From positions 64,001-109,311 of the IMG/VR virus record IMGVR_UViG_3300015608_002795: 45,311 nucleotides of DNA. The stretch is one strand, 5' to 3'. The notes under the pieces were generated by a model, which saw only the letters and a list, made by a program, of their open reading frames with translations, ran no database searches and was not told the DNA's origin. A program made the position numbers and the translations under genes. This document shows, piece after piece, positions 2 through 45,153 of the stretch. The stretch is from a virus (taxonomy: Duplodnaviria; Heunggongvirae; Uroviricota; Caudoviricetes). Position 1 is the first letter of the stretch; each line of letters begins with the position of its first letter.

Positions 2-406
2 ATGGGAATTGAACAATTAAAAAAGTTTGATGAGATTGATAAAAATAGAAAAAACTCTAAAAATAAAATATCTAAAATTTTAACTAAATATGTGTCAAAC
101 TTAAGAGCTATAGAAAGTTTAGAAAAATCAGAAACCTGTTGGTTTGGAACACCATTTGTATGTGAGTCTAAAGAGCAAAAAAGAAAATTGGTTTCTTTTT
201 TAGAGGAAAATAAAATACAAACTAGAAATTACTTTGCAGGAAATATTTTATTACATCCTGGATTTAAACACTTAGATGATTTGAAAAAATATCCTAATTC
301 AAATACTGTATTAGACAAAGTATTCTTTTTAGGAGCATCACCACATTATAATGATGATGTTTTTAATTACATTGAAAAAATATTTATTGAAAAATGGGAG
401 AATTAA
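2..406 (+). CDS. rfbH: C-terminal part of a PLP-dependent DegT/DnrJ/EryC1/StrS-family enzyme, RfbH/DdhC-like (CDP-4-keto-6-deoxyglucose 3-dehydratase); 5' truncated by the window edge
   Basis: CWFGTPF, L...KIQTRNYFAGNILLHP and VFFLGASPH match the RfbH C-terminus (TRxxFAGNxxxxP). The listed Met is probably internal. Confidence 0.75.
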   Translation: MGIEQLKKFDEIDKNRKNSKNKISKILTKYVSNLRAIESLEKSETCWFGTPFVCESKEQKRKLVSFLEENKIQTRNYFAGNILLHPGFKHLDDLKKYPNSNTVLDKVFFLGASPHYNDDVFNYIEKIFIEKWEN

Positions 407-1173
407 AATTTGGTGAGTGTGCTAAGCATCCTGGTAATAATATGGTTAATTGTATTAATTGTGAAATTGAAAGGCCATTAAATATGAAATTCAAATCTAT
501 ACTAGTACTTGGTGATGGTTTACTTGGATCGGAGTTAGTTAAACTAACTAATTGGAATTACATTTCTAGAAAGAAAGATAATTTTAATGTTGATGATGTT
601 GAATCTTGGAATTTTTCTGAATATGACATCGTAGTTAATTGTATAGCGAACACAGATACATACTCAAATGATAAAGAATCACACTGGAATCTAAATTATA
701 GATATGTATATAATCTAATTCAATATTGTAATCAACATAATATAAAGCTAGTCCATATATCAACCGAGTATTTATATGCTGGATCAGTTAGAAACGCAAC
801 AGAAGAAGATGTCCCGGTACATTGTGATAATTGGTATTGTTATACAAAGCTATTAGGAGATGGAATAGTTCAACTTCTATCTAATAATTATTTAATATGT
901 AGGTGTATGCATAAACCAAATCCTCTACCTTTCAATAAATCGTGGATAGACCAAGTTGGAAATTTTGACTATGTAGAAAATATTGCCCCCTTAATTATTA
1001 AATCTATAAACAAGGATTTAAATGGAGTGTATAATATTGGAACAGAACTAAAAACAATGATTGATTTGGCTCAGAGAGGAAATCCGAATATTGAGGCAGC
1101 ATTTTCTCCAGATTATGTACCAAAGGATATATCTATGTCAATAAAAAAATTAAATATAAATTTAAATAAATGA
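394..1173 (+). CDS. RmlD-like NAD(P)-dependent sugar reductase (SDR); the catalytic domain starts at Met 484
   Basis: VLGDGLLG Rossmann motif, VVNCIANTD, LVHISTEYLY and YCYTKLLGD (YxxxK). Confidence 0.85.
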   Translation: MGELKFGECAKHPGNNMVNCINCEIERPLNMKFKSILVLGDGLLGSELVKLTNWNYISRKKDNFNVDDVESWNFSEYDIVVNCIANTDTYSNDKESHWNLNYRYVYNLIQYCNQHNIKLVHISTEYLYAGSVRNATEEDVPVHCDNWYCYTKLLGDGIVQLLSNNYLICRCMHKPNPLPFNKSWIDQVGNFDYVENIAPLIIKSINKDLNGVYNIGTELKTMIDLAQRGNPNIEAAFSPDYVPKDISMSIKKLNINLNK

Positions 1174-2396
1174 GTTACGAAATTATAAGTAAATGTCCTA
1201 TAACCGATAGCCAAGATAAAATATCATATTTTGACCTAGGTAACTTTCCTTTGGTAAATAATCTAAATACCAGTAGAGAGGAATCGATTAACTGTGAAAG
1301 ATATCCACTAAGTATTGACTTATATACCGAGTCTAAATTAACAGCATTAAGTTGCGCTGTTGATGGAGAAAAATTATTTTCTAACTATCTATTTAAATCT
1401 GAAGTCAACCGCCCATACATAGAACATTGTAAGGTTATGTTTCAATATATTGATAGTATTGTTGATGTACAAGATGATGATTTAATTGTGGATATAGGAG
1501 GTAATGATGGAACCTTATTAAATGCTTTTAAAGATTGTAAAAAGATAGTGTGGGATGTTTTAAATATCGATCCTTCTGAAAATTTAGCAAAATTAGCTGA
1601 ATCAAAAGGAATACCAACAATATGTGACTTTTTTTCTTTTGAGGTATCTGAAAAGGTGGGGAGAAAAGCAAAGGTAGTTGTATCAACAAATGTTTTTCAA
1701 CATCTTAAAGATATTAACTCTTTTACTAAAGGTGTTCATAATCTCTTAGATAAAGACAGTATATGGGTATTAGAATTTCCCTATTGGATACATGATTTAG
1801 AAACCCTACAATTCGATCAGATATATCATGAGCATGTTTATTACTACTCTATAGTTCCACTTAACCTAATGATGAGGAAACATCATTTAAGAATTGTTAG
1901 AATACAGGAACAGAAAATACACGGAGGTACATTACGATTGGTGATGGTTAGAGAAGACTCTGATATGATTTCTGATGGAACTTTAGAGAAATTTTTAGAA
2001 ACGGAAGAGAAATATGATTTAGAATATTATAAAAAGTGGGGTGCTAAAATAAAATTACATTTAAGTAAATGTAAGGATCTAATTTTAGAACTAAAATCAC
2101 AAGGTAAGAAAATAGCAGGATTTGGAGCGGCGGCAAAAGGATGTATTTTTCTTAACTCAATAGGAATAACAAATGAACAAATAGAATATATCGTAGATGA
2201 CACTGATATAAAACAGGGAAAATTTATGCCTGGAACAGGTATCGAAATTGTAAGTAGAGATTATTTACAAACACATGAGGTAGACTATTTGATAATATTA
2301 ACACACAATTTTGCGGAGTTTATTATGAAAAGTGTTAAAGACAATTTCAGTGGGAAGTTTATTACTTTTTTACCTGAATTCAAAATTTATGAATAA
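1170..2396 (+). CDS. NDP-hexose C-methyltransferase (TcaB9/Methyltransf_13+14-type architecture)
   Basis: LGNFPLVNN, VDIGGNDGTLL, NVFQH, FDQIYHEH, IHGGTLR, GFGAAAKG, VDDTDIKQGKFMPG. Confidence 0.9.
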   Translation: MSYEIISKCPITDSQDKISYFDLGNFPLVNNLNTSREESINCERYPLSIDLYTESKLTALSCAVDGEKLFSNYLFKSEVNRPYIEHCKVMFQYIDSIVDVQDDDLIVDIGGNDGTLLNAFKDCKKIVWDVLNIDPSENLAKLAESKGIPTICDFFSFEVSEKVGRKAKVVVSTNVFQHLKDINSFTKGVHNLLDKDSIWVLEFPYWIHDLETLQFDQIYHEHVYYYSIVPLNLMMRKHHLRIVRIQEQKIHGGTLRLVMVREDSDMISDGTLEKFLETEEKYDLEYYKKWGAKIKLHLSKCKDLILELKSQGKKIAGFGAAAKGCIFLNSIGITNEQIEYIVDDTDIKQGKFMPGTGIEIVSRDYLQTHEVDYLIILTHNFAEFIMKSVKDNFSGKFITFLPEFKIYE

Positions 2397-2398
2397 AA

Positions 2399-3097
2399 AT
2401 GGGACCATTAATAAGTATATGTATACCAACATATGAAATGAAAGGTAAAGGAGCAGAATTTCTGGAGTTTTCATTTACAAGAATGTTTCTTCAGACTTAT
2501 GAAAACTTTGAGGTAATTGTATCCGATCATAGTACAACACATGTAATTGAAGATGTTTGTAAAAGATGGCAAGGTAAATTAAATATTAAACATTTCTATA
2601 ATGAAGATGGGAGAGGAATGTTTCCAAATAATACTAATAATGCAATAAGACAGGCAAAGGGTGATATTATTAAAATTCTTTGTCAGGATGACTTTTTATT
2701 CGATGATAAATCATTGGAAAATCTTGTCTTTCAATTCACAAATAATGACAAATATTGGTTAGTTACTGCTTGTTGTCATACTGAAGATGGATATAATTTA
2801 TATAGACCGTTTTATCCAGTATATCATGACAACATACAATATGGTGAAAACACTATAAGCTCACCAAGTGTATTGATGTTTAAAAATGAAAATGTCATGC
2901 CATTTGATGAAAATCTATTTTGGTTAGTGGATGTCGACTATTATAAAATGCTATTTGATAGATATGGACTTCCTGGAATTTGTAATGTAATTACTGTGGT
3001 TAATAGAGAAGATGAGAGCACAAGAGTCTCCAACACAGTAACTTCTGAAGTTATGAATAAGGAGCTTCAATATGTAATTAATAAATATAAAAAATAA
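2399..3097 (+). CDS. Family 2 glycosyltransferase
   Basis: ISICIPTYE, FEVIVSDHS, NNAIRQAKGDIIKILCQDD. Confidence 0.9.
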   Translation: MGPLISICIPTYEMKGKGAEFLEFSFTRMFLQTYENFEVIVSDHSTTHVIEDVCKRWQGKLNIKHFYNEDGRGMFPNNTNNAIRQAKGDIIKILCQDDFLFDDKSLENLVFQFTNNDKYWLVTACCHTEDGYNLYRPFYPVYHDNIQYGENTISSPSVLMFKNENVMPFDENLFWLVDVDYYKMLFDRYGLPGICNVITVVNREDESTRVSNTVTSEVMNKELQYVINKYKK

Positions 3098-3104
3098 ATA
3101 AAAA

Positions 3105-4007
3105 ATGAAAATTTACGATTGCTTTCAATTCTTCAACGAATTTGATGTATTGGATATAAGACTAAGTACACTATATGATCATGTGGACTACTTTGTAATA
3201 AGTGAAACAAATAAAACACACTCAAATATGGACAAACCATATTATTTTGATGAAAATAAACATTTATTTGAAAAGTATATGGATAAAATTATTCATATAA
3301 AAGAATGCTATCCAGATGATATACTAAAGTTTAAAAAGAAGGAAGAAAGTAACCCCTACAATGATATGTATAATATCATATCTGACATTTATGATAAAGA
3401 AGAACACGAAAACGAGTTAAAGAGGTGGCCTAATTTTTGTAGAGATTACTTACAAAGAGAGTATATAAAATTGGGTTTAATCAATTGTGAAGACGATGAT
3501 TTAATTATGGTATCTGATTTGGATGAAATTTCAAACCCTGATGTTATTGACCAAATAAGAGAAGGCAATATTGTTGATAAATGTCTAATGCAAAATTGTT
3601 ATTACTACTATGTAAATATGGTTGCTCATACTAATTGGTATGGTGCTTATGTGGTAAAATATTCAAAGACAAAGGATGTCTCATTAACACATCTTAGAAA
3701 TGAGAGCAAAAGTTATGAGAGAATAGATAATGCTGGGTGGCACTTTAGCTTTGTTGGTGGACCAGATAGAGTTAGAAATAAAATACAAAGTTATTCACAC
3801 CAAGAGTTTAACAATCCATACATTTTAAATGGAATTGAGCAAAGAATTAATAATAAACAAGATCCATTTGGAAGAGGAAATCACACTTATAATAATCCAA
3901 TACAAACATTTTATTATGAAAATATGTTAGTTACAGATATGAGTGAGTGCCCAGAAAAAATGGTTAATCTTATAAAAGAAAAATATAGTTATTTAATAAG
4001 AGAATAA
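3105..4007 (+). CDS. GT17-family (MGAT3-like beta-1,4-GlcNAc transferase) glycosyltransferase
   Basis: IYDCFQFFNEFDVLDIRL, VDYFVISE, QRE, MVSDLDEI, AGWHFSF, KIQSYSHQE. Confidence 0.85.
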   Translation: MKIYDCFQFFNEFDVLDIRLSTLYDHVDYFVISETNKTHSNMDKPYYFDENKHLFEKYMDKIIHIKECYPDDILKFKKKEESNPYNDMYNIISDIYDKEEHENELKRWPNFCRDYLQREYIKLGLINCEDDDLIMVSDLDEISNPDVIDQIREGNIVDKCLMQNCYYYYVNMVAHTNWYGAYVVKYSKTKDVSLTHLRNESKSYERIDNAGWHFSFVGGPDRVRNKIQSYSHQEFNNPYILNGIEQRINNKQDPFGRGNHTYNNPIQTFYYENMLVTDMSECPEKMVNLIKEKYSYLIRE

Positions 4008-4008
4008 T

Positions 4009-4986
4009 ATGAATTTATTAGACCCAACATACATAAGAGATATATGTGACTATTCATTTGGGGATCACCCTGGATTAGGATTATTTGGTGGATATATGAA
4101 ACCAGCTAATATTAATAACCAAGAGTTTATGAATAAGTACAGAGATATTGTCGGTAAGAAATCCTACATGACCTTGTTCATTGATAGTATCCGACTTTAT
4201 AATAGATCAGGTATAAAATATTCGGCTGTGGAACTCGTTAATGAAGAATCTAGAAGATACAAGGACAAAGTCGTGGTTGAATATTTTAGAGAAAATGACT
4301 TATTAGATTTATGCTCTAAGCTACCTGATATGAAGTTTGTTATATTTTCATTTTTTGATGATACACCAATTGATGAGTTTATTTTTGATAAAATACCAGA
4401 GAATGTTGTCGGTGTTTATGCGGCAAATGCAATCTCATTTGGAGGCAAAGTAACACCTGTCCCATATGGAATTCAACGAAAGTTGTATCCATGGGATAAC
4501 AGACATGATATATTATCAACGTTCATTAATCAAGAATATCCACCAACTAAATTACTATATATGAGTCATAATGTTGGACATAATCCAAATCGAATTAAAA
4601 TAAATGAATATTTTTCAGATAAACCTTGGGCTACAATTAAAAATCCAGCCGGAACTAATGAATATGTAAATTATTTATTAGATATTAAAAATCATAAGTT
4701 CATGATTTGTCCTGACGGAAACGCTATTGGATGTGAATGTCACAGAGATTGGGAAGTATTATATATGAGAAGAGTTCCTGTTGTTATCCGTTCGAAGTAT
4801 TTAGAGAAAATATTTGAAGGATTTCCTGTACTTATGGTTAACGATTTTACGGAGGTAACTGCGGAATTATTAGAAAATAATGATCATTTATATCAACAGG
4901 CACTGAATTTAGATATGTCTAAATTAGATATCAAGGTAATATATGATAATATCATATCTGAAGTAGAAGAAAAAATTAAAAATTAA
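4009..4986 (+). CDS. Exostosin/GT47-like putative glycosyltransferase
   Basis: KFMICPDGNAIGCECHRDWEVLYMRRVPVV resembles the KFxxxPxGNGxDCHRxWEAL...GxIPI motif. Confidence 0.65.
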   Translation: MNLLDPTYIRDICDYSFGDHPGLGLFGGYMKPANINNQEFMNKYRDIVGKKSYMTLFIDSIRLYNRSGIKYSAVELVNEESRRYKDKVVVEYFRENDLLDLCSKLPDMKFVIFSFFDDTPIDEFIFDKIPENVVGVYAANAISFGGKVTPVPYGIQRKLYPWDNRHDILSTFINQEYPPTKLLYMSHNVGHNPNRIKINEYFSDKPWATIKNPAGTNEYVNYLLDIKNHKFMICPDGNAIGCECHRDWEVLYMRRVPVVIRSKYLEKIFEGFPVLMVNDFTEVTAELLENNDHLYQQALNLDMSKLDIKVIYDNIISEVEEKIKN

Positions 4987-4987
4987 A

Positions 4988-5596
4988 ATGATAATAGATT
5001 ACAAAAAAGTAAGGAGTATAAGTACTGAATCATACAAAAAGGACTTTAACTATGATGGATATACTGCACCATTAGACAATACTCATCAGTTTGCTGATGA
5101 GAGAGGAAATAATGGTGAACATTATAAGTTGTTAACATACCTATCAAATATGTTTGACGGAATTACAATATTAGATGTTGGTACAAATTGGGGAGATTCT
5201 GCTATTTCTTTATCACAAAATAAAAATAATAAAGTAATATCCTATGATATTATGCATATATGGAACTTTCCATTTGCTAAAGACTATACAAATTTAGAAT
5301 TTAAATTAATGGATATCAATGATGAGGATCCAGAGATAATTAAGTCAGCTAAATTAATATTCTTTGATATTGCTCATGACGGTGTTCAGGAACAAAAATT
5401 TACTGATATGCTGGAGAGAATAGGATATAAAGGATATGTTCTTTGTGATGATATAAACCTACCATGGGCACCATGGATGAAAGTTTGGTGGGACGGATTG
5501 CAAGTAGAAAAATACGACATAACCGACATTGGTCATACTTGGGGAACTGGATTACTTAATTATTACCAAGATGGTAATATACAAATAATTAAATAA
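4988..5596 (+). CDS. Class I SAM-dependent methyltransferase (Methyltransf_24-like)
   Basis: ILDVGTNWGDSA, IFFDIAHDG, VLCDDI. Confidence 0.75.
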   Translation: MIIDYKKVRSISTESYKKDFNYDGYTAPLDNTHQFADERGNNGEHYKLLTYLSNMFDGITILDVGTNWGDSAISLSQNKNNKVISYDIMHIWNFPFAKDYTNLEFKLMDINDEDPEIIKSAKLIFFDIAHDGVQEQKFTDMLERIGYKGYVLCDDINLPWAPWMKVWWDGLQVEKYDITDIGHTWGTGLLNYYQDGNIQIIK

Positions 5597-5597
5597 G

Positions 5598-6254
5598 ATG
5601 ATAGATTTAAAAAATGTAACGATAGTTTCTGTAGCTTGTTTGCGAGTACCGGAAACAATTAAAGCGATACATAAATCAATGTATGGTATAAATTTTGGTG
5701 CATCCAAGTTATTGACATCTGAAGATTTTACAGATGATACTATTGAGATTATTAAGATTGATAGATTGGATTACGAAAATTATAATAGATTTGTAGTTTT
5801 TGAACTCTATAAGTACATAGATACTGATTATGTATTAATTGTTCAAGATGATGGATATGTAATTAATCCTGAGATGTGGAGAGATGAATTCTTTAACTAT
5901 GACTATATAGGAGCACCTTGGATGTTACCACCACCAAACGATTCTGTAAGTTTTAGAGATCCGTTTGGTAATATAATGAGAGTTGGTAATGGCGGTTTTT
6001 CGTTTAGAACTAAAAAACTATTAGAAATGCCGACTAAATTAAACTTAGAATGGAGATCATATTATGGTTATTTTAATGAGGATGGATTTTTTACCTGCCA
6101 CAACAGACATTTAATTGAAGCTCAAGGATGTGTATATGCTCCAATTGATGTGGCTAAATACTTCTCACACGAAGCAGAAATACCTGAAATACAGGGAATA
6201 ACTCCTTTTGGATTTCATGGAAAATGGTCAAAGTATAATGTAAATAATGAATAG
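5598..6254 (+). CDS. DUF5672-like putative glycosyltransferase (copy 1)
   Basis: LIVQDDGYV, YDYIGAPW, VGNGGFSFR, NEDGFF, AKYFSHE, PFGFHG. Confidence 0.8.
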   Translation: MIDLKNVTIVSVACLRVPETIKAIHKSMYGINFGASKLLTSEDFTDDTIEIIKIDRLDYENYNRFVVFELYKYIDTDYVLIVQDDGYVINPEMWRDEFFNYDYIGAPWMLPPPNDSVSFRDPFGNIMRVGNGGFSFRTKKLLEMPTKLNLEWRSYYGYFNEDGFFTCHNRHLIEAQGCVYAPIDVAKYFSHEAEIPEIQGITPFGFHGKWSKYNVNNE

Positions 6255-6939
6255 TCCATTTTTTGTAATAACCGATTATAATCACCTAACACAAGATTTA
6301 TCTCAATCATGGGTATCAAAATATGCAAAAGATTACTTAATCTATGATAGAGCAGATAGATGGGAAGAAACTGATAAAATAAAAAAGCAAATAAACGTAG
6401 GTGAGAATATTTATGATATGGCTGATTTTATAGTTAACAACTATCATAACTTACCTGAGATAATGGTTTTTGTAAAAGCAGATGTTATCCCAAGACATTG
6501 TGGTGAAGAAAAATTTGAAAAGATAATTAAAAATAATTTCTATACACCAATAGAAAATTATATAAGAACAACTCCATTATACACTCCGGGATCATATGCA
6601 TACGTGGATGAGAGTGATGGTTATTGGGAAAATATTTTTGAGGTGGATTATTTATTACAAGTAGTACATCCCGGAAAATACTTTCACAGATTTAGAGATT
6701 TTTTTAATGAAGTGTTCGAAAACGCAAATTTTGGAACACACATAAGATTTACACCAGGAGGATGTCATTTAATAACAAAAAAAGATGTATTAAAATATAA
6801 TAAGGAATTCTACGAATTAATTAAAAAAATCACCTCATGGGATATAAGACCGGGTGAAGTATTTATTTTAGAAAGGGGCATCTATACTATTTTCAATAAT
6901 AACTTTATTATTAAAGATAAATATAAAAATAAAAACTAA
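6247..6939 (+). CDS. DUF3431-like protein associated with glycan clusters
   Basis: YLIYDR, NVGEN...FIVNNYHNLPEIMVF, FTPGG..LITKK, LERG resemble the DUF3431 pattern. Confidence 0.55.
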   Translation: MNSPFFVITDYNHLTQDLSQSWVSKYAKDYLIYDRADRWEETDKIKKQINVGENIYDMADFIVNNYHNLPEIMVFVKADVIPRHCGEEKFEKIIKNNFYTPIENYIRTTPLYTPGSYAYVDESDGYWENIFEVDYLLQVVHPGKYFHRFRDFFNEVFENANFGTHIRFTPGGCHLITKKDVLKYNKEFYELIKKITSWDIRPGEVFILERGIYTIFNNNFIIKDKYKNKN

Positions 6940-6940
6940 T

Positions 6941-7870
6941 ATGTTAACAGCAAATTTAACTGGTAACTTAGGTAATCATATGTGGAACTATGTCATATGT
7001 AGACTTGTTGCTGAACAACTAGGTTATGAGTGGGGAGTAAATCCGACCCCATCACATGATTATTTACACGGACAAAGTCAAATGTACTTCATGAATATTG
7101 ATTATGGAAAGGAGGTTAAAATAATCGGACAGAATTCTATGGGATTAGCTATGTTTGAAGGAGTTCCAAATGAATATTATGATGAATTAAAAGTACACAA
7201 TACACCAACTGATAGTTGTTGTATTAACATGTATGATCCAAATGTATTTAATATACAAGATAATACAATGGTTCATATTAAATCACAATCAGAAGACTAT
7301 CTAATAGATAGAAGAGAAGACGTATTACAATGGTTCAGTTTTAAAGATGAATATGTTGATAAGTATAAACAAATGTTAGTTGAAAAAGGACTAACACTTG
7401 ATGATAATCTATGTGTTATAAACTTTAGGGGTGGTGAATGGAATTCTGTTCCAAATCTAATAGCATCCCCAAAATACTGGAGAGATTGTATGGATCATAT
7501 GTTATCAATAAATCCTCAAATTAAATTTATAATAATAACAGATGATACTGCTACTGCTCAAAGGTATATACCAGGTGTTCCATGTTTTCATGTTGAAATA
7601 GGTTTTGACTTCTATGTTGTTAGAAACTCTAAATACCTAATACTAGCAAATTCTTCTTTTAGTTGGTGGGGTGGATGGTTAAATCAAAGTGCTAAACTAA
7701 TATTAGGTCCTAAATATTGGGGAAGGTCTAACTTAAGTAATGGATATTGGTCTTTAGGTGATTTGTACTCCCGATTTTTTAAATATATGGATAGGGACGG
7801 AAATATATCAGATTTTGAAACCTGTAAGAGTGAAGCTTTGAATTTTTACAAAAATAACGGGTTGATTTAA
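6941..7870 (+). CDS. GT11 alpha-1,2-fucosyltransferase-like (copy 1)
   Basis: GNLGNHMW, INFRGGE (HxRxGD position), IITDD, LILANSSFSWWGGWL. Confidence 0.9.
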   Translation: MLTANLTGNLGNHMWNYVICRLVAEQLGYEWGVNPTPSHDYLHGQSQMYFMNIDYGKEVKIIGQNSMGLAMFEGVPNEYYDELKVHNTPTDSCCINMYDPNVFNIQDNTMVHIKSQSEDYLIDRREDVLQWFSFKDEYVDKYKQMLVEKGLTLDDNLCVINFRGGEWNSVPNLIASPKYWRDCMDHMLSINPQIKFIIITDDTATAQRYIPGVPCFHVEIGFDFYVVRNSKYLILANSSFSWWGGWLNQSAKLILGPKYWGRSNLSNGYWSLGDLYSRFFKYMDRDGNISDFETCKSEALNFYKNNGLI

Positions 7871-7925
7871 GCTACTTAAAAAACAATGATTAAGTATTTT
7901 AATAGAATATAAAAAATAGATCAAG

Positions 7926-10496: not shown

Positions 10497-10513
10497 AAAT
10501 AAAATAAAAAAAC

Positions 10514-11089
10514 ATGATTAGATTTAACATCATTACAGAAGATTCAGTTGACCATTGGCCACATATAGACTTAAATGGTAAAGTTTTACTAGATTTAGGA
10601 TGTGGAAGAGCGGTTGCACATATTGATGAGTTTCAACAAAGTCCAATTTTCTTAGGTGAAAGTGGGGCTAAAAAAGTAATAGGGGTCGATGGAAACCCAG
10701 ATGGTGGACCACTTATAAATGCTTGGAATGGCGAACCAAGTGAAATTGAGAGATTGAAAAGAATTGTAGAAGAAAAGGGTATCAATAAAAATGGTAAATA
10801 CACATTTATATGGAAGATGATTCAAACACCAGAGGACTTAAAAACTTTAATATCAAATAATGGAATCACAGCAATTAAATGTGATATTGAAGGATATGAG
10901 ACGAATTTCTACACATTAACAAAAGAAGATATGAATACTGTTGAGGTATTTGCCTTAGAATACCACACATATGATATCTTGGATAGATTTAGAGAAAAAT
11001 TTGAGGAATGGGGGTTCACAGTTTATGCGGAAGGTAAATTCACTTACGTAGATGCACCACAAGCGGGTGTTTTATTAGCAAAAAAATAA
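10514..11089 (+). CDS. SAM-dependent methyltransferase-like protein (FkbM-like)
   Basis: LLDLGCG, VIGVD, IKCDIEGYE. Confidence 0.6.
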   Translation: MIRFNIITEDSVDHWPHIDLNGKVLLDLGCGRAVAHIDEFQQSPIFLGESGAKKVIGVDGNPDGGPLINAWNGEPSEIERLKRIVEEKGINKNGKYTFIWKMIQTPEDLKTLISNNGITAIKCDIEGYETNFYTLTKEDMNTVEVFALEYHTYDILDRFREKFEEWGFTVYAEGKFTYVDAPQAGVLLAKK

Positions 11090-11097
11090 ATATAGTT

Positions 11098-11709
11098 ATG
11101 GAATTAAAAGAAGCTTGGGAAATATCAAGAAAGTTTATTACAGAATATACCGGAAAAGAACCAGGTACAATTGGTGAGAGAAATACAACACAATATGACG
11201 TTGATAAGGGAAGCGTGCATAGTTATCTTGAGACCTACCATGACCATTTTAATAAATATTTAGGTAGACCTATTAATATTCTCGAAATTGGAATTTCGGG
11301 AGGATGGAGCCTATATATGTGGAAACAATATTTTGGAAAAAGTAGCAATGTTGTTGGTATTGATATTGATCCATATAATTTAATTTGGAAAGATGAGAAT
11401 AAAGAAGTAAAAATGATATTTTCTGATATCAATGATATGGATAGAATTAGCTCAGAGCTTGGTGATATGAGATTTGATATAATCATTGATGATGGTAGTC
11501 ATGTAACAGAAGATATGATAAATACATTTTATTTCTTATTTGGTAGATTAAATGAGGGTGGTACTTATGTCATGGAAGATGTTGATGGAAACTATCCTGA
11601 TAGAGTCCAATCAATAATGGATAAACTTTCAGAACACTCTCCGGTGTTAGTAGATTTAAGAAAGGTTAAAGAAAGATATGATGATATACTAATCATATTT
11701 AAAAAATAA
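11098..11709 (+). CDS. Class I SAM-dependent O-methyltransferase
   Basis: HSYLETY, ILEIGISGGWS, VVGIDID, FDIIIDDGSH, LNEGGTYVMED. Confidence 0.85.
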   Translation: MELKEAWEISRKFITEYTGKEPGTIGERNTTQYDVDKGSVHSYLETYHDHFNKYLGRPINILEIGISGGWSLYMWKQYFGKSSNVVGIDIDPYNLIWKDENKEVKMIFSDINDMDRISSELGDMRFDIIIDDGSHVTEDMINTFYFLFGRLNEGGTYVMEDVDGNYPDRVQSIMDKLSEHSPVLVDLRKVKERYDDILIIFKK

Positions 11710-11716
11710 AAGATAA

Positions 11717-12970
11717 ATGATGAAGATAGGATTTATAGGACTCGGCAAATTAGGATTACCTTGTGCACTAGCCATCGAACAAAAAGGGCACAAGATTTAT
11801 GGATATGATATCAATCCATCGGTTAAAGACATTTTAGATGAAAAAAAACTTCCGTATAGAGAAGAAGGTGCTCAAGAATTATTAGATAATCACAATATAA
11901 AATGGGGAACAGCTTCAGAAGTAATATCTAATTCAGATATTATATTTGTTCCGATTCAGACACCACACCATCCAAAGTATGAGGGGTCAACAAGGATACC
12001 TGAAGAAAGAATAGACTTTGATTATACTTGGTTAAAAAATGGTATGAAATTAATCTCTGATGAAGTTGAGAAAATTGGAACTGATAAAATTGTAGTTATT
12101 ATATCAACTGTTTTACCAGGTACTATTAGAAATGAGATTAAACCATTGTTAAGTAATCATATTAAGCTATGTTATAATCCATTTTTTATTGCTATGGGTA
12201 CAACAATTAGAGATTTTACATCTCCTGAGTTTGTTCTATTTGGTGTAGATGATGATGAAGCCTACGAAGTAGTTAAAAAATTCTACTCAACAATACATAG
12301 TAAACCAGTGTATAAATGTACACTTGAAGAAGCCGAAATGATAAAAGTTACTTATAACACCTATATAACAATGAAGGTTTGCTTAGCAAATACTGTTATG
12401 GAATTATCACATAAACTTGAGAATATAAATTGTGATAATGTTATGAAGGGGTTATTCTTAGCAAATGAAAGGTTAATAAGTCCTAAATATTTATTAGGTG
12501 GAATGGGAGATGGTGGTGGTTGTCATCCTAGAGATAACATAGCCCTTTCTTGGTTAGCAAGAAAAGTTGACTTAAGTTTTGATTGGTATGATAACCTAAT
12601 GAATTGCCGGGAAATGCAAACTGAGTGGTTAGGCGATATAATAATTGAAGAAAGAGAAAAAAATAATTTGCCAATAATTATACTTGGTAAAACATTTAAA
12701 AAAGAAACTAATCTTATATTAGGAAGTCCGTCAATACTATTAAAGAACATTTTAGAAGAAAAGGGAATTAAATTAGAAATGTATGATCCTTGGATTGATA
12801 ATGAGGAAGCTCCTTTAAATAGACCTAGTATATTTTTCATTGGTACGAATCATGATATTTTTTTAGATTATAAATTTCCAGTAGGTTCGACGGTAATTGA
12901 TCCTTGGAGATTTATTAAAGAACAAACAGGTGTTAGATTAATAAAAATAGGAAACTCTACAAAAGATTAA
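11717..12970 (+). CDS. ugd: UDP-glucose/GDP-mannose 6-dehydrogenase family protein
   Basis: IGFIGLGKLG, FVPIQTP, ISTVLPGT, YNPFF, AEMIKVTYN, GGGCHPRD (catalytic Cys), LGKTFK. Confidence 0.88.
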   Translation: MMKIGFIGLGKLGLPCALAIEQKGHKIYGYDINPSVKDILDEKKLPYREEGAQELLDNHNIKWGTASEVISNSDIIFVPIQTPHHPKYEGSTRIPEERIDFDYTWLKNGMKLISDEVEKIGTDKIVVIISTVLPGTIRNEIKPLLSNHIKLCYNPFFIAMGTTIRDFTSPEFVLFGVDDDEAYEVVKKFYSTIHSKPVYKCTLEEAEMIKVTYNTYITMKVCLANTVMELSHKLENINCDNVMKGLFLANERLISPKYLLGGMGDGGGCHPRDNIALSWLARKVDLSFDWYDNLMNCREMQTEWLGDIIIEEREKNNLPIIILGKTFKKETNLILGSPSILLKNILEEKGIKLEMYDPWIDNEEAPLNRPSIFFIGTNHDIFLDYKFPVGSTVIDPWRFIKEQTGVRLIKIGNSTKD

Positions 12971-12971
12971 T

Positions 12972-13904
12972 ATGAATATTTTAGTAACTGGTGGTGCAGG
13001 ATTTTTCGGATCTAAATTGGCCGAAAAACTATTAGAAAAAGGATACAATGTGACCGTATATGATAAATTGATGTATGATAATAAGGTATCTGAAAAATTT
13101 ACAAGTAACAAAAATTATAGGTTGATTGTTGGTGATGTAACAGACCATCCTAAATTAGAGCATGTAATAATGAATAATGACATTGTTGTTCATTTAGCAG
13201 CACTGGTAGGTGAGCCTGTATGTAAAAGAAATAAGGATATCATTTATGATATAAATACTTTATCAACACAATTTATATCAGATGTTTGTAAAAACAATAA
13301 TAAGCAACTTGTGTTTTTAAGCACTTGTTCAAACTATGGTAAAAATAGTGATATTGTAAATGAAAAATCAGAATTAAATCCATTAGGACTATATTCTGAT
13401 TCTAAAATCAAATCTGAAAATTATATAATAGATAACTTAGAGTCACATCTCATTTTAAGATGTGCTACACTATTTGGAATTTCTCATAGAATGAGAATTG
13501 ATCTTACTATAAATCAATTCATATTTGAAGGTATTAGAGATGGGTACATCGGTATTTTTGGTGAAATGACATGGAGGCCATTCTTATATGTTGATGATGC
13601 TTGTAATATGATAATTTTAGCAGTTGAAAATAAGTTACAAGGAGTTTATAACCTTGGAGATGATTCACTAAACTTCACAAAAAGAGATATAGTTGATAAT
13701 TTGAAGAAATGTGGAATGAACTTTGATATAAAGTTCGTAGACTTTGATGATCCAAGAGATTATAGAGTTGATTTTTCAAAGATTAAGTCCGCTCTAAATT
13801 ACACTATACAATTTCCTTTGGATAAAGGAATAGAATGTGTAAGGGAATACATGATAAATAATTGGGATTCCTTATCTAAGGATCTTACAATTACTAATAA
13901 TTAA
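12972..13904 (+). CDS. NAD-dependent epimerase/dehydratase (extended SDR)
   Basis: ILVTGGAGFFG, VVHLAALVG, FLSTCSNYG, LYSDSK, WRPFLYVDD. Confidence 0.9.
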   Translation: MNILVTGGAGFFGSKLAEKLLEKGYNVTVYDKLMYDNKVSEKFTSNKNYRLIVGDVTDHPKLEHVIMNNDIVVHLAALVGEPVCKRNKDIIYDINTLSTQFISDVCKNNNKQLVFLSTCSNYGKNSDIVNEKSELNPLGLYSDSKIKSENYIIDNLESHLILRCATLFGISHRMRIDLTINQFIFEGIRDGYIGIFGEMTWRPFLYVDDACNMIILAVENKLQGVYNLGDDSLNFTKRDIVDNLKKCGMNFDIKFVDFDDPRDYRVDFSKIKSALNYTIQFPLDKGIECVREYMINNWDSLSKDLTITNN

Positions 13905-13913
13905 AAATATTTT

Positions 13914-14693
13914 ATGATACACGGATCATTCGGAGGCAGAATGGGAAACCAGATGTTTCAATATGCAATAGCTCGTATAATAGCAGAAAAAAATGGATAT
14001 AAATTTTATCTTCCAAATGTTGGTGAACCCCCTTTTCCACATCCTGAAGATCCAAATCATCATCTATATAACTACTTTCCTAATTTAGATCGTGGAGAAA
14101 TAGATGGTGGATTATTATATCAGTATCAAGAAAATCCTCAACAAATATTTGATCCAAATATTTTTAGTATTCCTAATTTTACAAGAATATATGGATACTA
14201 TCAAACTGAAAAATATTTTGACGGATTTGAAGATAAATTAAAGGAGTGGTTTAGGTTAGATATGGATAATGTAACAAAAGGACTATTGGAAAGATATCCG
14301 GTCGAGGATTATTGTTATATACATTTTAGAGTTCATGTATTTGGTGAGGGACAAACTTATATTTCACTTAAATTTTATTTAGATGCTATTGAAAAAGTTA
14401 AAGAAATAAATCCTAATATCAAAATATTAGTAATCACAGAAGATGTAGATATTACAAAAAATGTATTTAAAGATGTAGAGTGTGAAGTTATATCTAATGA
14501 TATGATGGTTGATTATAAACTATTATTTTATTCTAAATACTGTATTATATCACCTTCTACCTTCTCTTGGTGGGCCGCTTGGCTCAGTGATAAATATATC
14601 ACGGTAGCTCCTGAAAATTGGATTTACTATGATAAACCAGAAAATGGATGCTTCCCGGCAGATGTTAAAAGTAATAAGTTTATATATGTCTAA
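13914..14693 (+). CDS. GT11 alpha-1,2-fucosyltransferase-like (copy 2)
   Basis: GRMGNQMFQYA, GYYQTEKYF, IHFR, STFSWWAAWL. Confidence 0.9.
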   Translation: MIHGSFGGRMGNQMFQYAIARIIAEKNGYKFYLPNVGEPPFPHPEDPNHHLYNYFPNLDRGEIDGGLLYQYQENPQQIFDPNIFSIPNFTRIYGYYQTEKYFDGFEDKLKEWFRLDMDNVTKGLLERYPVEDYCYIHFRVHVFGEGQTYISLKFYLDAIEKVKEINPNIKILVITEDVDITKNVFKDVECEVISNDMMVDYKLLFYSKYCIISPSTFSWWAAWLSDKYITVAPENWIYYDKPENGCFPADVKSNKFIYV

Positions 14694-15387
14694 AATAGAT
14701 TTACCAAATATTACATTAGTTAGTATAACCTCTATTAGGTTAAATACCACAGTCAAAGCACTTAAAAAGTCGATGAGTGGTATTAATTTTGGATCGGTTA
14801 AACTATTTACTGATGTTGATGTCGTTGATAATGAAATCGAGGTTGTTAAAGTTCCAAAAATGGATATTATTGAATATAACAGATTTGTCATCTATGAATT
14901 ACATAAGTATATAGATACCGATTTTGCATTACAGATACAAGATGATGGATATGTAGTAAATCCTGATATGTGGAGAGATGATTTTTTACATTATGATTAT
15001 ATAGGAGCTCCTTGGGGGTTCACTTGTTTCTATGATAAGTATGGTCAACAAATAAAAGTCGGAAATGGAATTTCGATTAGGAGTAAAAGATTAATGGAGT
15101 TACCAACCTTAAAAAATATGCCATGGCATCCACATGATGGAAATTATAATGAGGATGCTCAAATATGTATTTGGAATAGAAGTCTGTTTCTTGATAATGG
15201 TATGACATTTGCACCATTTGAATTGGCAAAATACTTCTCACATGAGGAGAAACTAATTGAGTCTTTTAAAGACGGCAAAAGGACGCTTATAACACCACAA
15301 GGCGTAGAGTATGGTGATATCAAGCCATTTTGCTTTCATAATCTTTTGGGTGGAGAAAATAACGCACAATATAAAATATATGAATAA
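14686..15387 (+). CDS. DUF5672-like putative glycosyltransferase (copy 2); start moved to ATG 14686
   Basis: IQDDGYV, YDYIGAPW, VGNG, NEDAQI, AKYFSHE. The N-terminus aligns with copy 1 from ATG 14686, which overlaps the upstream TAA. Confidence 0.8.
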   Translation: MSKIDLPNITLVSITSIRLNTTVKALKKSMSGINFGSVKLFTDVDVVDNEIEVVKVPKMDIIEYNRFVIYELHKYIDTDFALQIQDDGYVVNPDMWRDDFLHYDYIGAPWGFTCFYDKYGQQIKVGNGISIRSKRLMELPTLKNMPWHPHDGNYNEDAQICIWNRSLFLDNGMTFAPFELAKYFSHEEKLIESFKDGKRTLITPQGVEYGDIKPFCFHNLLGGENNAQYKIYE

Positions 15388-16144
15388 AATAATTGTTGGA
15401 TATACTGGTTTAGTTGGTCAAACATTATTAGATAATATAAAGTTTGACTATTTTTTTAATAGTTCAAATATTAATGAATTTGAGTCAATTGTTAATGATG
15501 GTGATGAATTAGTATTAACTTGCCTATCCTCTAATAAAAGAATAGTTACTCAAAATGTTAAACAAGATTTAGATAATATTAACAATATTATAAATATTCT
15601 TTCTAGAAAGAAATATTCTAACATCAAACTTATATCAACAGTAGACGTTTATAGTGACTCACCAAAGGGTAGTAACGAAGACTATATACCAAACATATTT
15701 AAACTTGGATACGGATCAAATAGATATCTATTTGAGATGATGATACGTGAGTTTGTTAAGTGTGATGATTTAAAAATATTTAGACTAGCTGCTTTGTTTA
15801 ATAAAAAAATAAAGAAAAACGTACTTTATGATCTATTAAATGGTACACCATTTGAAATAAATGAGAATTCTACTTTTCAATGGTATAATTTGGATAACCT
15901 ATTTTCGGATATTGAGTATCTATCTAATAAATATTCAGATCAAAAGGTATTTAATTTATTTAATGAACCAATAGAAACAGTTGACCTAATAAACCTTTTT
16001 GGTAAAACAGATTGTAAAATTATCAAGGGAGATAGAATGGATTACAATTATAAAACTAAATTTTCAAATAGTGGATATTTAAAACAACAAGATGAAGTTT
16101 TAATAGAATTAAAAGAATTTATAGAAAAATATGATAATATCTAA
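15380..16144 (+). CDS. Atypical NAD(P)-binding SDR/epimerase-like protein; start moved to ATG 15380
   Basis: IVGYTGLVG, LISTVDVY, YGSNR, IFRLAALF. Confidence 0.7.
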   Translation: MNKIIVGYTGLVGQTLLDNIKFDYFFNSSNINEFESIVNDGDELVLTCLSSNKRIVTQNVKQDLDNINNIINILSRKKYSNIKLISTVDVYSDSPKGSNEDYIPNIFKLGYGSNRYLFEMMIREFVKCDDLKIFRLAALFNKKIKKNVLYDLLNGTPFEINENSTFQWYNLDNLFSDIEYLSNKYSDQKVFNLFNEPIETVDLINLFGKTDCKIIKGDRMDYNYKTKFSNSGYLKQQDEVLIELKEFIEKYDNI

Positions 16145-16913
16145 ATTACAAGGCGGGTTAGGAAACCAACTATTTCAATGGGCAGCGGCTCGATCATATT
16201 CAGATGTTCATAATTGTGAACATAAATTTGACACATCTTTTTATCCTTATCAAAATTTTAGGCAACTTGAATTATATAATTTTGAAAACCTAACGTTTAG
16301 TACTATAAATAGATTTGATATTGGAAAACCAATTATAGAAATAAATGATAATTATCACTTTCAAGAATTACCATATGTTAATGACTGTGTAGTTTTTTTA
16401 AATGGATTTTGGCAAAGTGAAAAATATTTTATTAAATCACAAAATATAATACGAAAAGAACTATCACCTGATGAAGAAACATTAAGTAGGCTAAAGAGGA
16501 CACCATTATTGGAAACCAACACACTATCCTTGCATATAAGGAGAACGGATTACGTAAGTTCTAATGGATATCATCCAGTTCAACCAATAAGTTATTACGA
16601 AGAAGCTATAAACATAATCGGAGACTATGACTTTATATTTGTTTTTTCTGACGATATTGAATGGTGTATGAATAATTTGAAATTCAAAAATATGATATTT
16701 ATGGGGGGATCTACTGGATTTTCTAATGTAGAAGAAATGTGGTTAATGTCTATGTGTAAAAATCATATAATAGCTAATAGTTCATTTAGTTGGTGGGGAG
16801 CTTGGTTAAATAGTAACCCAAATAAAAAGGTAGTGGCTCCATTAAATTGGTTTGGTAGTCATACAAATATAAATGATTCAGATATTGTTCCTGACTCATG
16901 GATAAAAATTTAA
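16131..16913 (+). CDS. GT11 alpha-1,2-fucosyltransferase-like (copy 3, WbsJ/FutC-type)
   Basis: GGLGNQLFQ, GFWQSEKYF, LHIRRTDY, FSDDIEW, HIIANSSFSWWGAWL, IVPDSWIKI. Confidence 0.93.
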   Translation: MIISKLQGGLGNQLFQWAAARSYSDVHNCEHKFDTSFYPYQNFRQLELYNFENLTFSTINRFDIGKPIIEINDNYHFQELPYVNDCVVFLNGFWQSEKYFIKSQNIIRKELSPDEETLSRLKRTPLLETNTLSLHIRRTDYVSSNGYHPVQPISYYEEAINIIGDYDFIFVFSDDIEWCMNNLKFKNMIFMGGSTGFSNVEEMWLMSMCKNHIIANSSFSWWGAWLNSNPNKKVVAPLNWFGSHTNINDSDIVPDSWIKI

Positions 16914-16919
16914 AATAAT

Positions 16920-17798
16920 ATGTCAATAAAAGTAGCCTTCGCAGATTTTTGGGGTGGGTTTAACTATAATCCAGATATAAATGTTAATAGTAAAGAGATG
17001 TATTATGGGGATAATACATTATATGACATTCTATCCGAAAGGTATGATATAGAAACTTCTACCAACCCAGATGTTTTAATCTACAGCGTTTTTGGAAATT
17101 CACATACACAATATAGTTGTAAAAAGGTATTTTATACTGGAGAAAATATGAGACCTAATTACAACCAATGTGATTACTCATTGACATTTGATTATCTAGA
17201 TGATGAAAGAAACTATAGATTCCCACTATCAGCAATTACCTTATATGAGTCTGGTATAAGAGATAAGTTTCCAAAAGAAATTGATTTTGATAAAATAAAA
17301 AAAGAAAAGACAAAGTTCTGCAATTTTGTATTTTCAAATCCAAATGCACAATTAAGAAATCAACTATTTTATGAATTATCAAAATATAAGCAAGTTGATT
17401 CTGGTGGACGAGCACTTAATAATATTGGGTATGCCGTTAGTGATAAATTAGAATTTATTAACAATTATAAATTTACCATTTGCTTTGAAAATAGTGAATA
17501 TCCAGGATATACAACTGAAAAATTAGTGCATCCTAAGTTAAAAAATAGTATTCCTATATATTGGGGAAATCCAAGAGTTGGTGAGGATTGGAATACAAAG
17601 TCATTTATCAATGCTTATGATTTTAAAGATATCAACTCTCTCATTGATTATATTAAAGAGGTAGATAATGATGATAATTTATATGAGAATATTTTAAAGG
17701 AAAGTCATTTTTTAGATGATAAATTACCACATGATTTAGATACTAATAATTTATTAGATTTTTTTGAAAAAATATTTAAAAATGAAAAAAAGCATTGA
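16920..17798 (+). CDS. GT10 alpha-1,3/4-fucosyltransferase-like
   Basis: FYTGEN, KFCNFVFSNP, VDSGG, YKFTICFENS..PGYTTEK, IPIYWG. Confidence 0.92.
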   Translation: MSIKVAFADFWGGFNYNPDINVNSKEMYYGDNTLYDILSERYDIETSTNPDVLIYSVFGNSHTQYSCKKVFYTGENMRPNYNQCDYSLTFDYLDDERNYRFPLSAITLYESGIRDKFPKEIDFDKIKKEKTKFCNFVFSNPNAQLRNQLFYELSKYKQVDSGGRALNNIGYAVSDKLEFINNYKFTICFENSEYPGYTTEKLVHPKLKNSIPIYWGNPRVGEDWNTKSFINAYDFKDINSLIDYIKEVDNDDNLYENILKESHFLDDKLPHDLDTNNLLDFFEKIFKNEKKH

Positions 17799-17914: not shown

Positions 17915-18514
17915 TTAAATCTTCTGAATGATTCTTGGAACGGTTTCAAGTTCCATTACTTTAGATTTATTAAGTAAAAATTCAATTTGTACAAAGTTAA
18001 ATTTAAAGGTTAACGTAAATTCTTTAGGATTAACTTTTTGTTGTGAGTAATCAAAATTAACCTCGCTTAGTGATAGAGCGATAATTTCAAAAAATTTAAT
18101 TACATAAATAGCATCACGATGTATATCAACAGCAGTTATTGTAAATGGATTAATATACATGTTAATAACATCTAAATAGTGCTTCTGAAAGATATCAAAT
18201 ACTAACCAATAATTTAAGTCAGAATCAACTGATCTAAAAGTAACTTGAAACTCTCTGGTAGAAACAATATCATTAACGTTTGTAGCAGGTTTATAAGACC
18301 TTTTTTTACCTCGTATTAAAGATTGCTCAGGTGTTTGAATACTAAGTCCTGGGAAATTAACAGATTTAATTGTAGAGTTAATATAATCAATTACGTTCTC
18401 ATACTGCACCCAATTCTTTTCTAGAATTGGAGTATAGGTGTTAATAATTTCCTGGGGTAAGAAATCACTTGGTAGATTAAATATAAACTGCGACGATTGA
18501 CTCGATAACCTCAT
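17915..18514 (-). CDS. T4 gp3-like tail tube terminator/tail completion protein (tail-tube fold)
   Basis: SVNFPGLS..TP, FQVTF..DSDLNY, SLSEVNFDYS and FTLTFKFN resemble the gp3 family; lies in a late operon. Confidence 0.6.
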   Translation of the reverse strand: MRLSSQSSQFIFNLPSDFLPQEIINTYTPILEKNWVQYENVIDYINSTIKSVNFPGLSIQTPEQSLIRGKKRSYKPATNVNDIVSTREFQVTFRSVDSDLNYWLVFDIFQKHYLDVINMYINPFTITAVDIHRDAIYVIKFFEIIALSLSEVNFDYSQQKVNPKEFTLTFKFNFVQIEFLLNKSKVMELETVPRIIQKI

Positions 18515-33241: not shown

Positions 33242-33242
33242 A

Positions 33243-34555: not shown

Positions 34556-34584
34556 TTAGTTTATTATTTTTACTCTACTTATAG

Positions 34585-35625: not shown

Positions 35626-35627
35626 AT

Positions 35628-43313: not shown

Positions 43314-45153
<1,840 letters not shown>

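Follow-up and report, generated by a model that had tools for sequence, protein, structure and literature searches.

The closest described counterpart of the glycan-gene island reported here is the machinery with which the chlorovirus PBCV-1 builds the N-glycan of its capsid protein Vp54 (A075L, A111/114R and A064R; PMC11571054, PMC7826918). One of these enzymes, A075L, acts in the cytosol and adds xylose to fucose in the capsid glycan; it was earlier filed as an exostosin or glycosyltransferase (GT) 47 protein and is now the founder of CAZy family GT114, with Arg158 and Arg208 binding phosphate (PMC11571054). PBCV-1 also uses a GT10-like fucosyltransferase domain (PMC7826918). The island begins just before, and occupies the left part of, a 45,311-nucleotide window of viral DNA (bases 64001-109311 of one linear 109,311-base contig, IMG/VR record IMGVR_UViG_3300015608_002795). 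Like the PBCV-1 system, it is virus-encoded, consists of soluble, cytoplasmic transferases with no membrane or export step, and includes a true sequence homologue of A075L, a Helicobacter-type GT10 fucosyltransferase and sugar methyltransferases. It differs in being carried by a tailed phage of a bacterium, in being known from its genes alone, and in having a GT114 protein with about 45 more N-terminal residues than A075L. The island also adds an E1-type 3-dehydrase, sugar C-methyltransferases and members of GT6, GT11 and GT17, none of which, to our knowledge, is known for PBCV-1. The reading that we tentatively prefer, giving it slightly less than an even chance, is that these genes form a cytoplasmic assembly line that draws on host nucleotide-sugars and places a variable, methylated fucose/xylose/deoxyhexose glycan on virion proteins.

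Three other systems invite comparison. T4-like cyanophages such as P-SSM2 carry clusters described as serving the modification of lipopolysaccharide (LPS) or capsular polysaccharide (PMC7824862). These are likewise large, polymorphic blocks of short-chain dehydrogenase/reductase (SDR) epimerases or dehydratases and many glycosyltransferases in large lytic phages, their content varies between close relatives, and their acceptor has never been demonstrated. However, they are described with sugar kinases and nucleotidyltransferases, which provide complete activation and which the island lacks, they belong to another phage lineage and host phylum, and GT114 sets the present island apart. A passage of PMC12619734 places the glycans of mycobacteriophages Che8, Corndog and Myrna (Freeman et al. 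2023) on capsid and tail-tube subunits. There, as here, the transferases are phage-encoded; the present island adjoins a gene for a predicted tail-tube fold. The mycobacteriophages reportedly use few transferases and no sugar-tailoring pathway, compared with the 22 genes of the island. Finally, in the capsular heptose pathway of Campylobacter jejuni, a C4-dehydrogenase (Cj1427) and then a pyridoxal phosphate (PLP)-dependent C3-dehydratase lead to 3-deoxy-4-keto sugars (PMC10680097). The chemistry proposed below would be similar, in that a 4-keto sugar would arise by direct C4 oxidation before loss of the 3-hydroxyl. In contrast, the 3-dehydrase of the island is of the Fe-S E1/RfbH type rather than ColD-like, and two C-methyltransferases are added.

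Exactly 20 plus-strand open reading frames (ORFs) fill positions 2-17798 of the window. Most are separated or overlapped by 1-17 bases, and the widest gap is 55 bases, which agrees with the tightly coupled 20-gene operon of a preliminary description made from the window alone. The island starts before the window, where a full RfbH-like gene of 431 amino acids (aa), a 570-aa GT2+GT6 fusion and a 241-aa GT2 protein are immediately upstream. The whole island comprises 22 genes in 21,085 bases (contig 60714-81798). Farther upstream are genes for a ClpB-like AAA+ protein, two small conserved proteins, a PARG-like protein, a methyltransferase and a GT4-type transferase. This flank, where exporter or polymerase genes would have refuted the preliminary description by its own criterion, holds phage genes (ClpB-like, PARG-like) and neither an exporter nor a polymerase.

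None of the island proteins carries a transmembrane segment or a signal-like N-terminus by Kyte-Doolittle analysis, in line with the earlier remark that no obvious transmembrane segments were visible. We also searched five records for functions that a membrane-bound pathway would use: this contig, three related IMG/VR contigs, and the entire LR756502.1, a 642-kb uncultured phage linked to the contig by DNA similarity and synteny. Zero matches were found to the Wzx flippase (Polysacc_synt, PF01943), the polymerase/ligase (Wzy_C, PF04932), the initiating phosphoglycosyl transferases (Bac_transf, PF02397; Glycos_transf_4, PF00953), the ABC2_membrane exporter (PF01061) and the nucleotidyltransferase (NTP_transferase). 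Each of these export, initiation and activation searches matched 10-14 of 14 control genomes. Thus, the lack of a flippase, Wzy, ABC exporter and polyprenyl-phosphate initiating transferase, first remarked on for the window, holds even in the 642-kb relative record.

A link to giant-virus virion glycosylation, firmer than the one drawn in the preliminary description, comes from the 325-aa island protein, which we place in CAZy GT114 as a homologue of the A075L beta-xylosyltransferase, with a corresponding predicted activity. A profile of 11 phage homologues (alignment A1) matches the PDB entries 8q8i, 8avq and 8asa (E 3.6e-30), with A1 positions 111-319 aligned to positions 68-279 of the A075L chain. 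The single sequence also matches A075L (E 5e-18), and equivalents of Arg158, Arg208 and Asn202 are conserved. The two phosphate-binding arginines correspond to the invariant A1 columns R195 and R246. The catalytic base of A075L, Asp73, lies outside the pairwise alignment, but the ungapped offset of the profile match would put it on the invariant A1 column D118. The protein has about 1,500 metagenomic homologues. Its earlier label, 'GT47-like', was right in substance, given that the family was once filed under GT47.

Nearly all of the other family calls of the preliminary description are borne out by Pfam, including GT10, GT17 and two DUF5672 proteins. Its count of three GT11 proteins stands for two; the third, the 309-aa protein, falls below the family gathering score, and 'GT11-like' describes a resemblance. 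This protein shares an N-terminal G-x-G-N-x-M motif with the two clear GT11 proteins, is conserved in 12 related loci, and had no match when its profile was searched against the PDB. The DUF5672 and DUF3431 proteins likewise have no PDB sequence match. The transferase set (GT10, three GT11-type, GT6 and GT114) suggests a glycan centred on fucose and bearing branches of galactose or xylose type; up to three small methyltransferases would O-methylate it. The GT2+GT6 fusion (L004:11357-13069) matches GT6 at 165 bits. Its GT6 domain keeps a D-V-D motif and an H-D-E-S-H-L-N-K-Y block, its C-terminus is a zinc-ribbon-like tail (C-x2-C ... C-x2-C), and translation probably begins at the second Met (residue 34), directly after the stop codon of the preceding GT2 gene.

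A second group of enzymes appears to tailor sugars. The RfbH-like protein and the E1 dehydrase of Yersinia (PDB 3bcx, E 1e-79) align over their full lengths. Comparison with this wild-type structure and with the H-to-K variant 3bb8 reveals a His in place of the aminotransferase Lys, together with the conserved C-x-C and flanking Cys of the Fe-S motif, so that both hallmarks of an E1-type dehydrase are present. Its NCBIfam RfbH score of 369.6 bits is below the equivalog cut-off of 423. The two C-methyltransferase domains reported earlier reside in the 408-aa protein and in the 856-aa SDR fusion, each with Methyltransf_14. The C-terminal half of the fusion resembles the TylC3-type enzyme 4rv9 (E 1.6e-72) and TcaB9 (E 3e-53), and its SDR domain is nearest to PDB 6vo6 (E 6e-17). 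The same structure is the best match of the 310-aa SDR. A role for this SDR as UDP-xylose synthase was considered and rejected, because matches to such enzymes (about 1e-20) are some 28 orders of magnitude weaker than that to 6vo6. We take 6vo6 to be Cj1427, the Campylobacter GDP-heptose C4-dehydrogenase.

The Ugd, RmlD-like and other SDR assignments of the preliminary description are confirmed by Pfam, except that the 277-aa SDR is recognised by its structure model (Atlas model, pTM 0.91; TM 0.87-0.92 to Epimerase/RmlD clusters by structure). The three further methyltransferases named there have unequal standing: the 203-aa protein is a Pfam match, and the 202-aa and 191-aa proteins are leads from embedding searches. 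A dehydratase-type Asp-Glu motif before Y-x3-K is absent from all island SDRs, leaving no recognisable 4,6-dehydratase, and Pfam finds no ferredoxin-reductase-type domain (E3) in any island protein. Consequently, a complete 3,6-dideoxyhexose pathway of the rfb/asc type was not found, the nucleotidyltransferase being missing from the five records and the 4,6-dehydratase and E3 reductase from the island proteins. Because the island has neither a nucleotidyltransferase nor a recognisable 4,6-dehydratase, it would start from host nucleotide-sugars.

We assign the contig, which CheckV estimates at about 39% of a genome, to the Mahaphage clade as a 109-kb fragment of a huge phage. Five genomes of more than 634 kb have been placed in this clade, with predicted replication in Bacteroidetes (PMC7162821), and the predicted host phylum here is accordingly Bacteroidota. 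GC content is uniform (26-32% along the contig, 28-31% in the island), and the remaining genes of the window are of phage type, including a single-strand DNA-binding protein, an endolysin, GIY-YIG and HNH homing endonucleases and an RNA-ligase-like gene. The same slot, from the ClpB-like gene to the convergent pair of genes for 199-aa and 617-aa proteins, is present in this contig, LR756502.1, LR745206.1 and a fourth phage (L008), with flanks that are 69-80% identical in protein across the four. LR756502.1 has 16 of the 22 island genes and both flanks in synteny. This agreement with an independently assembled 642-kb phage, together with the uniform GC content, substantiates the earlier statement that the cluster is phage-encoded.

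The content of the slot is far more variable than its borders. The slot of LR745206.1 (L038) holds a cassette of similar size with about 18 genes, only about four of which have counterparts in this island. This amounts to a wholesale cassette replacement between two phages of more than 630 kb with 75-77% identity in their flanks. LR756504.1 retains the 199/617 pair with no island next to it. The gene for the 856-aa SDR-C-methyltransferase fusion is the most widely conserved of the island; a search with it recovered 31 related IMG/VR loci, and about 12 of these have a common core of GT2, GT17, GT114, DUF5672 and GT11-type proteins and Ugd. Gene order is shuffled between related loci, with many locus-specific genes interspersed. 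Protein identity among the homologues is 45-86%, an indication of long-term purifying selection. The changing content at a fixed slot suggests that the glycan differs from strain to strain.

The island converges on two genes with tail-type characteristics. The 199-aa protein is very strongly conserved, with more than 1,800 homologues that are almost without exception exactly 199 aa long and, among the matches listed, 73-99% identical. Its structure model is of moderate confidence (pLDDT 62), and Foldseek relates it (probability 1.0, TM 0.4-0.55) to tube-family chains of T4, P1, KP1 and lambda and also to Hcp. This predicted tail-tube fold gives reasonable support to the earlier view of an operon convergent with a tail gene. 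The 617-aa protein is represented by more than 1,500 homologues, some on contigs as long as 780 kb; in the phage collection, its sequence homologues come only from huge-phage genomes of 462-735 kb. Its model (pLDDT 72) includes several beta-sandwich domains, a tail-tube/Dit-like domain and a disordered C-terminal tail. Residues 434-550 give borderline VIA-align scores (Z 7.2-8.4) to tail and baseplate chains of T5, TP901-1, Douge and 80alpha, and fold homologues occur in Tenacibaculum jumbo phages. Thus, the protein is probably a tail component. An alternative identity as a tail sheath was rejected, since the matches (Foldseek on PDB and BFVD, VIA-align) include no sheath and comprise only beta-sandwich and borderline tail-tip or baseplate structures.

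The C-terminal tail of the 617-aa protein carries a short conserved motif, T-A-I-V-T-R-K/R, after which both length and sequence are hypervariable. In many relatives this tail is very rich in Ser/Thr or Gly (Ser/Thr up to 32 of 60 residues). We considered Ser/Thr richness as a signature of a glycan acceptor and set it aside, as the feature is marked in relatives and unexceptional in this phage's own protein. A role for the 617-aa protein as the acceptor is speculative and serves only as a lead.

From the enzyme families, we infer a possible order of reactions, the sugars made and the acceptor. The tailoring module would consist of two 6vo6-type SDRs, the E1/RfbH 3-dehydrase, two sugar C-methyltransferases and two or three short reductases. 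These might take a host nucleoside diphosphate (NDP)-hexose or 6-deoxyhexose through C4 oxidation, removal of the 3-hydroxyl, addition of C-methyl branches and reduction of the keto group, to yield a branched deoxy or dideoxy sugar. The Ugd-like dehydrogenase might supply a uronic acid or pentose precursor. Some 10-12 soluble transferases (three GT2, GT6, GT17, GT114, GT10, three GT11, perhaps two DUF5672 and DUF3431) could then build an oligosaccharide rich in fucose-type sugars, and the three small methyltransferases could O-methylate it. The acceptor would be a soluble macromolecule, most probably a structural protein of the phage tail or capsid, as in chloroviruses and mycobacteriophages. 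We favour virion proteins because all enzymes are soluble and even the 642-kb relative record encodes no membrane step, because chloroviruses, which also use a GT10-like domain, have a cytosolic capsid-glycan enzyme to which one island enzyme is homologous, and because the island adjoins tail-type genes. In a 134-kb IMG/VR contig (L024:15314-20269), a related island with the SDR-C-methyltransferase fusion and GT114 is directly followed by two genes, one for a 728-aa protein and one for a 920-aa P22-like portal protein. The preliminary description had proposed a glycan built directly on a soluble acceptor, most plausibly virion proteins, or a remodelling of host surface glycan. This interpretation is partly supported, in that the phage origin of the DNA, the lack of export genes and the link to giant-virus virion glycosylation are borne out, with virion proteins as a putative acceptor.

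Several points weigh against virion proteins as the acceptor, which we infer rather than observe. The glycosyltransferase nature of the DUF5672 and DUF3431 proteins is putative only, and one related island (L027) adjoins RecA- and DnaB-like genes instead of structural genes. The contig is an incomplete genome, so the absences rest mainly on the 642-kb relative record. Moreover, soluble or peripheral GT2, GT6, GT10 and GT11 enzymes, normally without membrane segments, are typical of Bacteroidota and Helicobacter LPS and capsule loci, and in bacterial O-antigen and capsule loci they act on undecaprenyl-linked acceptors. The lack of membrane segments thus does not exclude lipid-linked glycans of the host, which could itself supply initiation, flipping and ligation.

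These points lead to the best-surviving alternative, which we consider unlikely yet worth serious attention. The phage transferases might act at the inner membrane face on undecaprenyl-linked O-antigen, capsule or O-glycosylation intermediates of the host, whose flippases and ligases would export the altered glycan and bring about superinfection exclusion or escape from grazers or immunity during a long infection. The comparable clusters of jumbo cyanophages have been read as host surface modification (PMC7824862), the host phylum is Bacteroidetes (PMC7162821), and diversification of island content is also seen in O-antigen loci. However, this explanation has to borrow every membrane step, since an initiating transferase, flippase, polymerase/ligase and ABC exporter are all missing even from the 642-kb relative record. 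In addition, the nearest characterised relative of one enzyme, A075L, modifies a viral capsid protein in the cytosol, and the island occupies a fixed slot beside tail-type genes.

Another soluble acceptor is improbable. The acceptor might be a non-structural phage protein, a cytoplasmic host protein or a small molecule, as with the branched deoxysugars of natural products. C-methylated deoxysugars of the TylC3/TcaB9 type are characteristic of antibiotic glycosides (PDB names), cyanophages have been proposed to carry a metabolite-type sugar cluster (PMC7824862), and the neighbours of the island are not always structural genes, as seen in L027. The island and its flanks nevertheless hold no aglycone-forming genes (polyketide synthase, nonribosomal peptide synthetase or terpene), and at least 10 glycosyltransferases are far above the number usual in natural-product pathways.

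Glycosylation of modified phage bases as a defence against restriction is very improbable. Phage glycosyltransferases related to LPS enzymes can indeed place mono- to trisaccharides on 5-hydroxymethylcytosine (bioRxiv 10.1101/2023.12.21.572611), but such systems need a cytosine methyltransferase with a TET-like dioxygenase, or a hydroxymethylase. In the 642-kb relative, the sole thymidylate-synthase-family (PF00303) gene encodes an ordinary ThyA (E 1e-74 to E. coli-type enzymes), in agreement with the earlier report of no hydroxymethylase, and Tet_JBP gave no match in a search for which the control set contained no positive. The adenylosuccinate synthetase of the window is an ordinary PurA rather than PurZ, and more than 10 transferases with deoxysugars and O-methylation far exceed known DNA glycans. 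Least credible of all is that the island is a chimera of assembly or was recently captured from a host and plays no part in the phage; the host-like enzyme families are the sole point in its favour. Synteny of both flanks and of most island genes extends to huge phages that were assembled independently and to about 12 IMG/VR contigs, GC content is uniform, and the homologues bear the mark of long-term purifying selection. Replaceable content at a fixed site, as in surface-antigen loci, also speaks against this explanation.

Sugar clusters of jumbo cyanophages, virion glycosylation of mycobacteriophages and autonomous glycosylation by giant viruses are already published. What is specific here is the Mahaphage-clade lineage, the fixed tail-adjacent slot whose cassette is almost completely exchanged between relatives, the joint presence of an E1-type dehydrase, two C-methyltransferases and 6vo6-type dehydrogenases in the absence of any activation enzyme, and the blood-group-type set of GT6, GT10 and GT11. 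Glycosylation is unmentioned in the Mahaphage paper (PMC7162821) and in a 2026 review of jumbo phages (PMC13282480). If the virion is the target, particle glycosylation would be widespread, elaborate and fast-evolving in the largest known phages, beyond mycobacteriophages and giant viruses, with a bearing on evasion of recognition, adhesion to mucus or particles, and survival outside cells. A broader picture, which we regard as possible and advance with reserve, is that huge Bacteroidota phages coat a tail or capsid protein, with the 617-aa neighbour as one candidate, with a self-made, strain-variable, methylated glycan of fucose, xylose and branched deoxysugar. The toolkit of GT114, GT10-type and O-methyltransferase enzymes is one that algal giant viruses share; cytoplasmic protein glycosylation would then be a common viral strategy in bacterial as well as eukaryotic hosts, and the island would evolve like an O-antigen locus of the virion. 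The island is also a source of soluble and probably easily expressed enzymes with rare chemistry, including the E1-type 3-dehydrase, the sugar C-methyltransferases, GT114 and the GT6, GT10 and GT11 proteins.

Table 1. Genes of the island and its convergent right flank, in window coordinates unless stated otherwise (SAM, S-adenosylmethionine).
Feature	Position	Strand	Basis
RfbH/E1-type NDP-4-keto-6-deoxyhexose 3-dehydrase, C-terminal 134 aa	2..406	+	Pfam DegT_DnrJ_EryC1
Full RfbH-like gene, 431 aa	L004:13111-14406, starts 890 bases before window	+	NCBIfam RfbH 369.6 bits, full length
Short RmlD-like SDR, 259 aa, probable NDP-4-ketosugar reductase	394..1173	+	Pfam RmlD_sub_bind 58.6 bits; NCBIfam rmlD weak
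NDP-sugar C-methyltransferase, 408 aa	1170..2396	+	Pfam Methyltransf_14 122 bits; also Methyltransf_23, Methyltransf_13
GT2 glycosyltransferase, 232 aa	2399..3097	+	Pfam Glycos_transf_2 52.5 bits
GT17-like glycosyltransferase, 300 aa	3105..4007	+	Pfam Glyco_transf_17 76.8 bits, cut-off 26
Predicted GT114 glycosyltransferase, A075L homologue, 325 aa	4009..4986	+	No Pfam match; PDB profile E 3.6e-30
Probable small SAM-dependent O-methyltransferase, 202 aa	4988..5596	+	No Pfam match; Atlas feature search 0.96-0.99 to viral Methyltransf_24/Methyltransf_3 clusters (lead)
DUF5672 protein, putative glycosyltransferase, 218 aa	5598..6254	+	Pfam DUF5672 74.5 bits
DUF3431 protein, 230 aa	6247..6939	+	Pfam DUF3431 28.6 bits, cut-off 25, partial match
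Divergent GT11-like protein, 309 aa	6941..7870	+	Pfam Glyco_transf_11 E 2e-4, 21.1 bits, below cut-off 23.9
Fusion of SDR (N-terminal) and sugar 3-C-methyltransferase (C-terminal), 856 aa	7926..10496	+	Pfam Epimerase and Methyltransf_13/23/14
Probable FkbM-like methyltransferase, 191 aa	10514..11089	+	No Pfam match; Atlas feature search 0.90-0.93 to Methyltransf_21 clusters (lead)
Class I SAM methyltransferase, 203 aa	11098..11709	+	Pfam Methyltransf_24 28.3 bits
NDP-sugar 6-dehydrogenase, Ugd-like, 417 aa	11717..12970	+	Pfam UDPG_MGDP_dh N, central and C domains; NCBIfam NDP-sugDHase 193.1 bits, above cut-off
Extended SDR, 310 aa	12972..13904	+	Pfam Epimerase 122 bits; PDB 6vo6 E 5.6e-49
GT11 (alpha-1,2-fucosyltransferase family) protein, 259 aa	13914..14693	+	Pfam Glyco_transf_11 47.4 bits
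Second DUF5672 protein, 252 aa; true start probably after first ATG	14629..15387	+	Pfam DUF5672 49.3 bits
Short SDR/RmlD-like reductase, 277-aa ORF; probable start at residue 24 (about base 15380)	15311..16144	+	No Pfam match; Atlas model
GT11 protein, 260 aa	16131..16913	+	Pfam Glyco_transf_11 95 bits
GT10 alpha-1,3/4-fucosyltransferase-type protein, 292 aa, last island gene	16920..17798	+	Pfam FucT_N 86.8 bits and Glyco_transf_10 80 bits
Predicted tail-tube/Hcp-type fold protein, 199 aa, convergent right flank	17915..18514	-	Structure model; no Pfam or PHROG match
Conserved protein, 617 aa, probable tail component	18517..20370	-	Structure model, homologues

Scans for regulatory signals say little about how the island is transcribed. 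The Bacteroidota promoter motif has 3 matches in the window against 2.8 expected, which is uninformative, and sigma-70 and terminator scans are at background level. A GC-rich hairpin with a 6-bp stem (17859-17876) is located within the 116 bases that separate the GT10 gene from the convergent 199-aa gene. This hairpin may be a shared terminator, to be read with the background-level terminator count of the scan.

Other genes on the contig might be relevant to sugars, chaperones or nucleotides. About 4 kb left of the island, with the ClpB-like gene between, a GT4-type glycosyltransferase, a class I methyltransferase and a microbial-type PARG (ADP-ribose glycohydrolase) stand in a row (contig 54475-56922; L004:4475-6922), and none of them has homologues in those related loci that were examined. 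The minus strand carries another small set of sugar genes at 33557-36329, where a GalE/TviC-like SDR epimerase (332 aa) and a GT2 protein (233 aa) lie on either side of a full-length DnaJ with its J, zinc-finger and C-terminal domains. Together with the ClpB-like gene left of the island, this DnaJ gives the phage an encoded chaperone set of its own.

A full-length adenylosuccinate synthetase is encoded at 43737-45050 (+) and has a PurZ-type PHROG label. The corresponding Z-genome interpretation was rejected, because the protein matches bacterial PurA in the PDB at E 1e-116, compared with 8e-21 for a PurA-like phage enzyme. This gene and an IMPDH/GMP-reductase-family (inosine monophosphate dehydrogenase/guanosine monophosphate reductase) gene at 32294-33271 (-) look like auxiliary genes of purine metabolism rather than a Z-genome system. 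Finally, a 220-aa protein encoded at 31266-31928 (+) has a sub-threshold Pfam match to Thg1, the tRNA-His guanylyltransferase (E 0.001, 19.5 bits against a cut-off of 29.2), which is possibly of interest since the phage has a large tRNA island.

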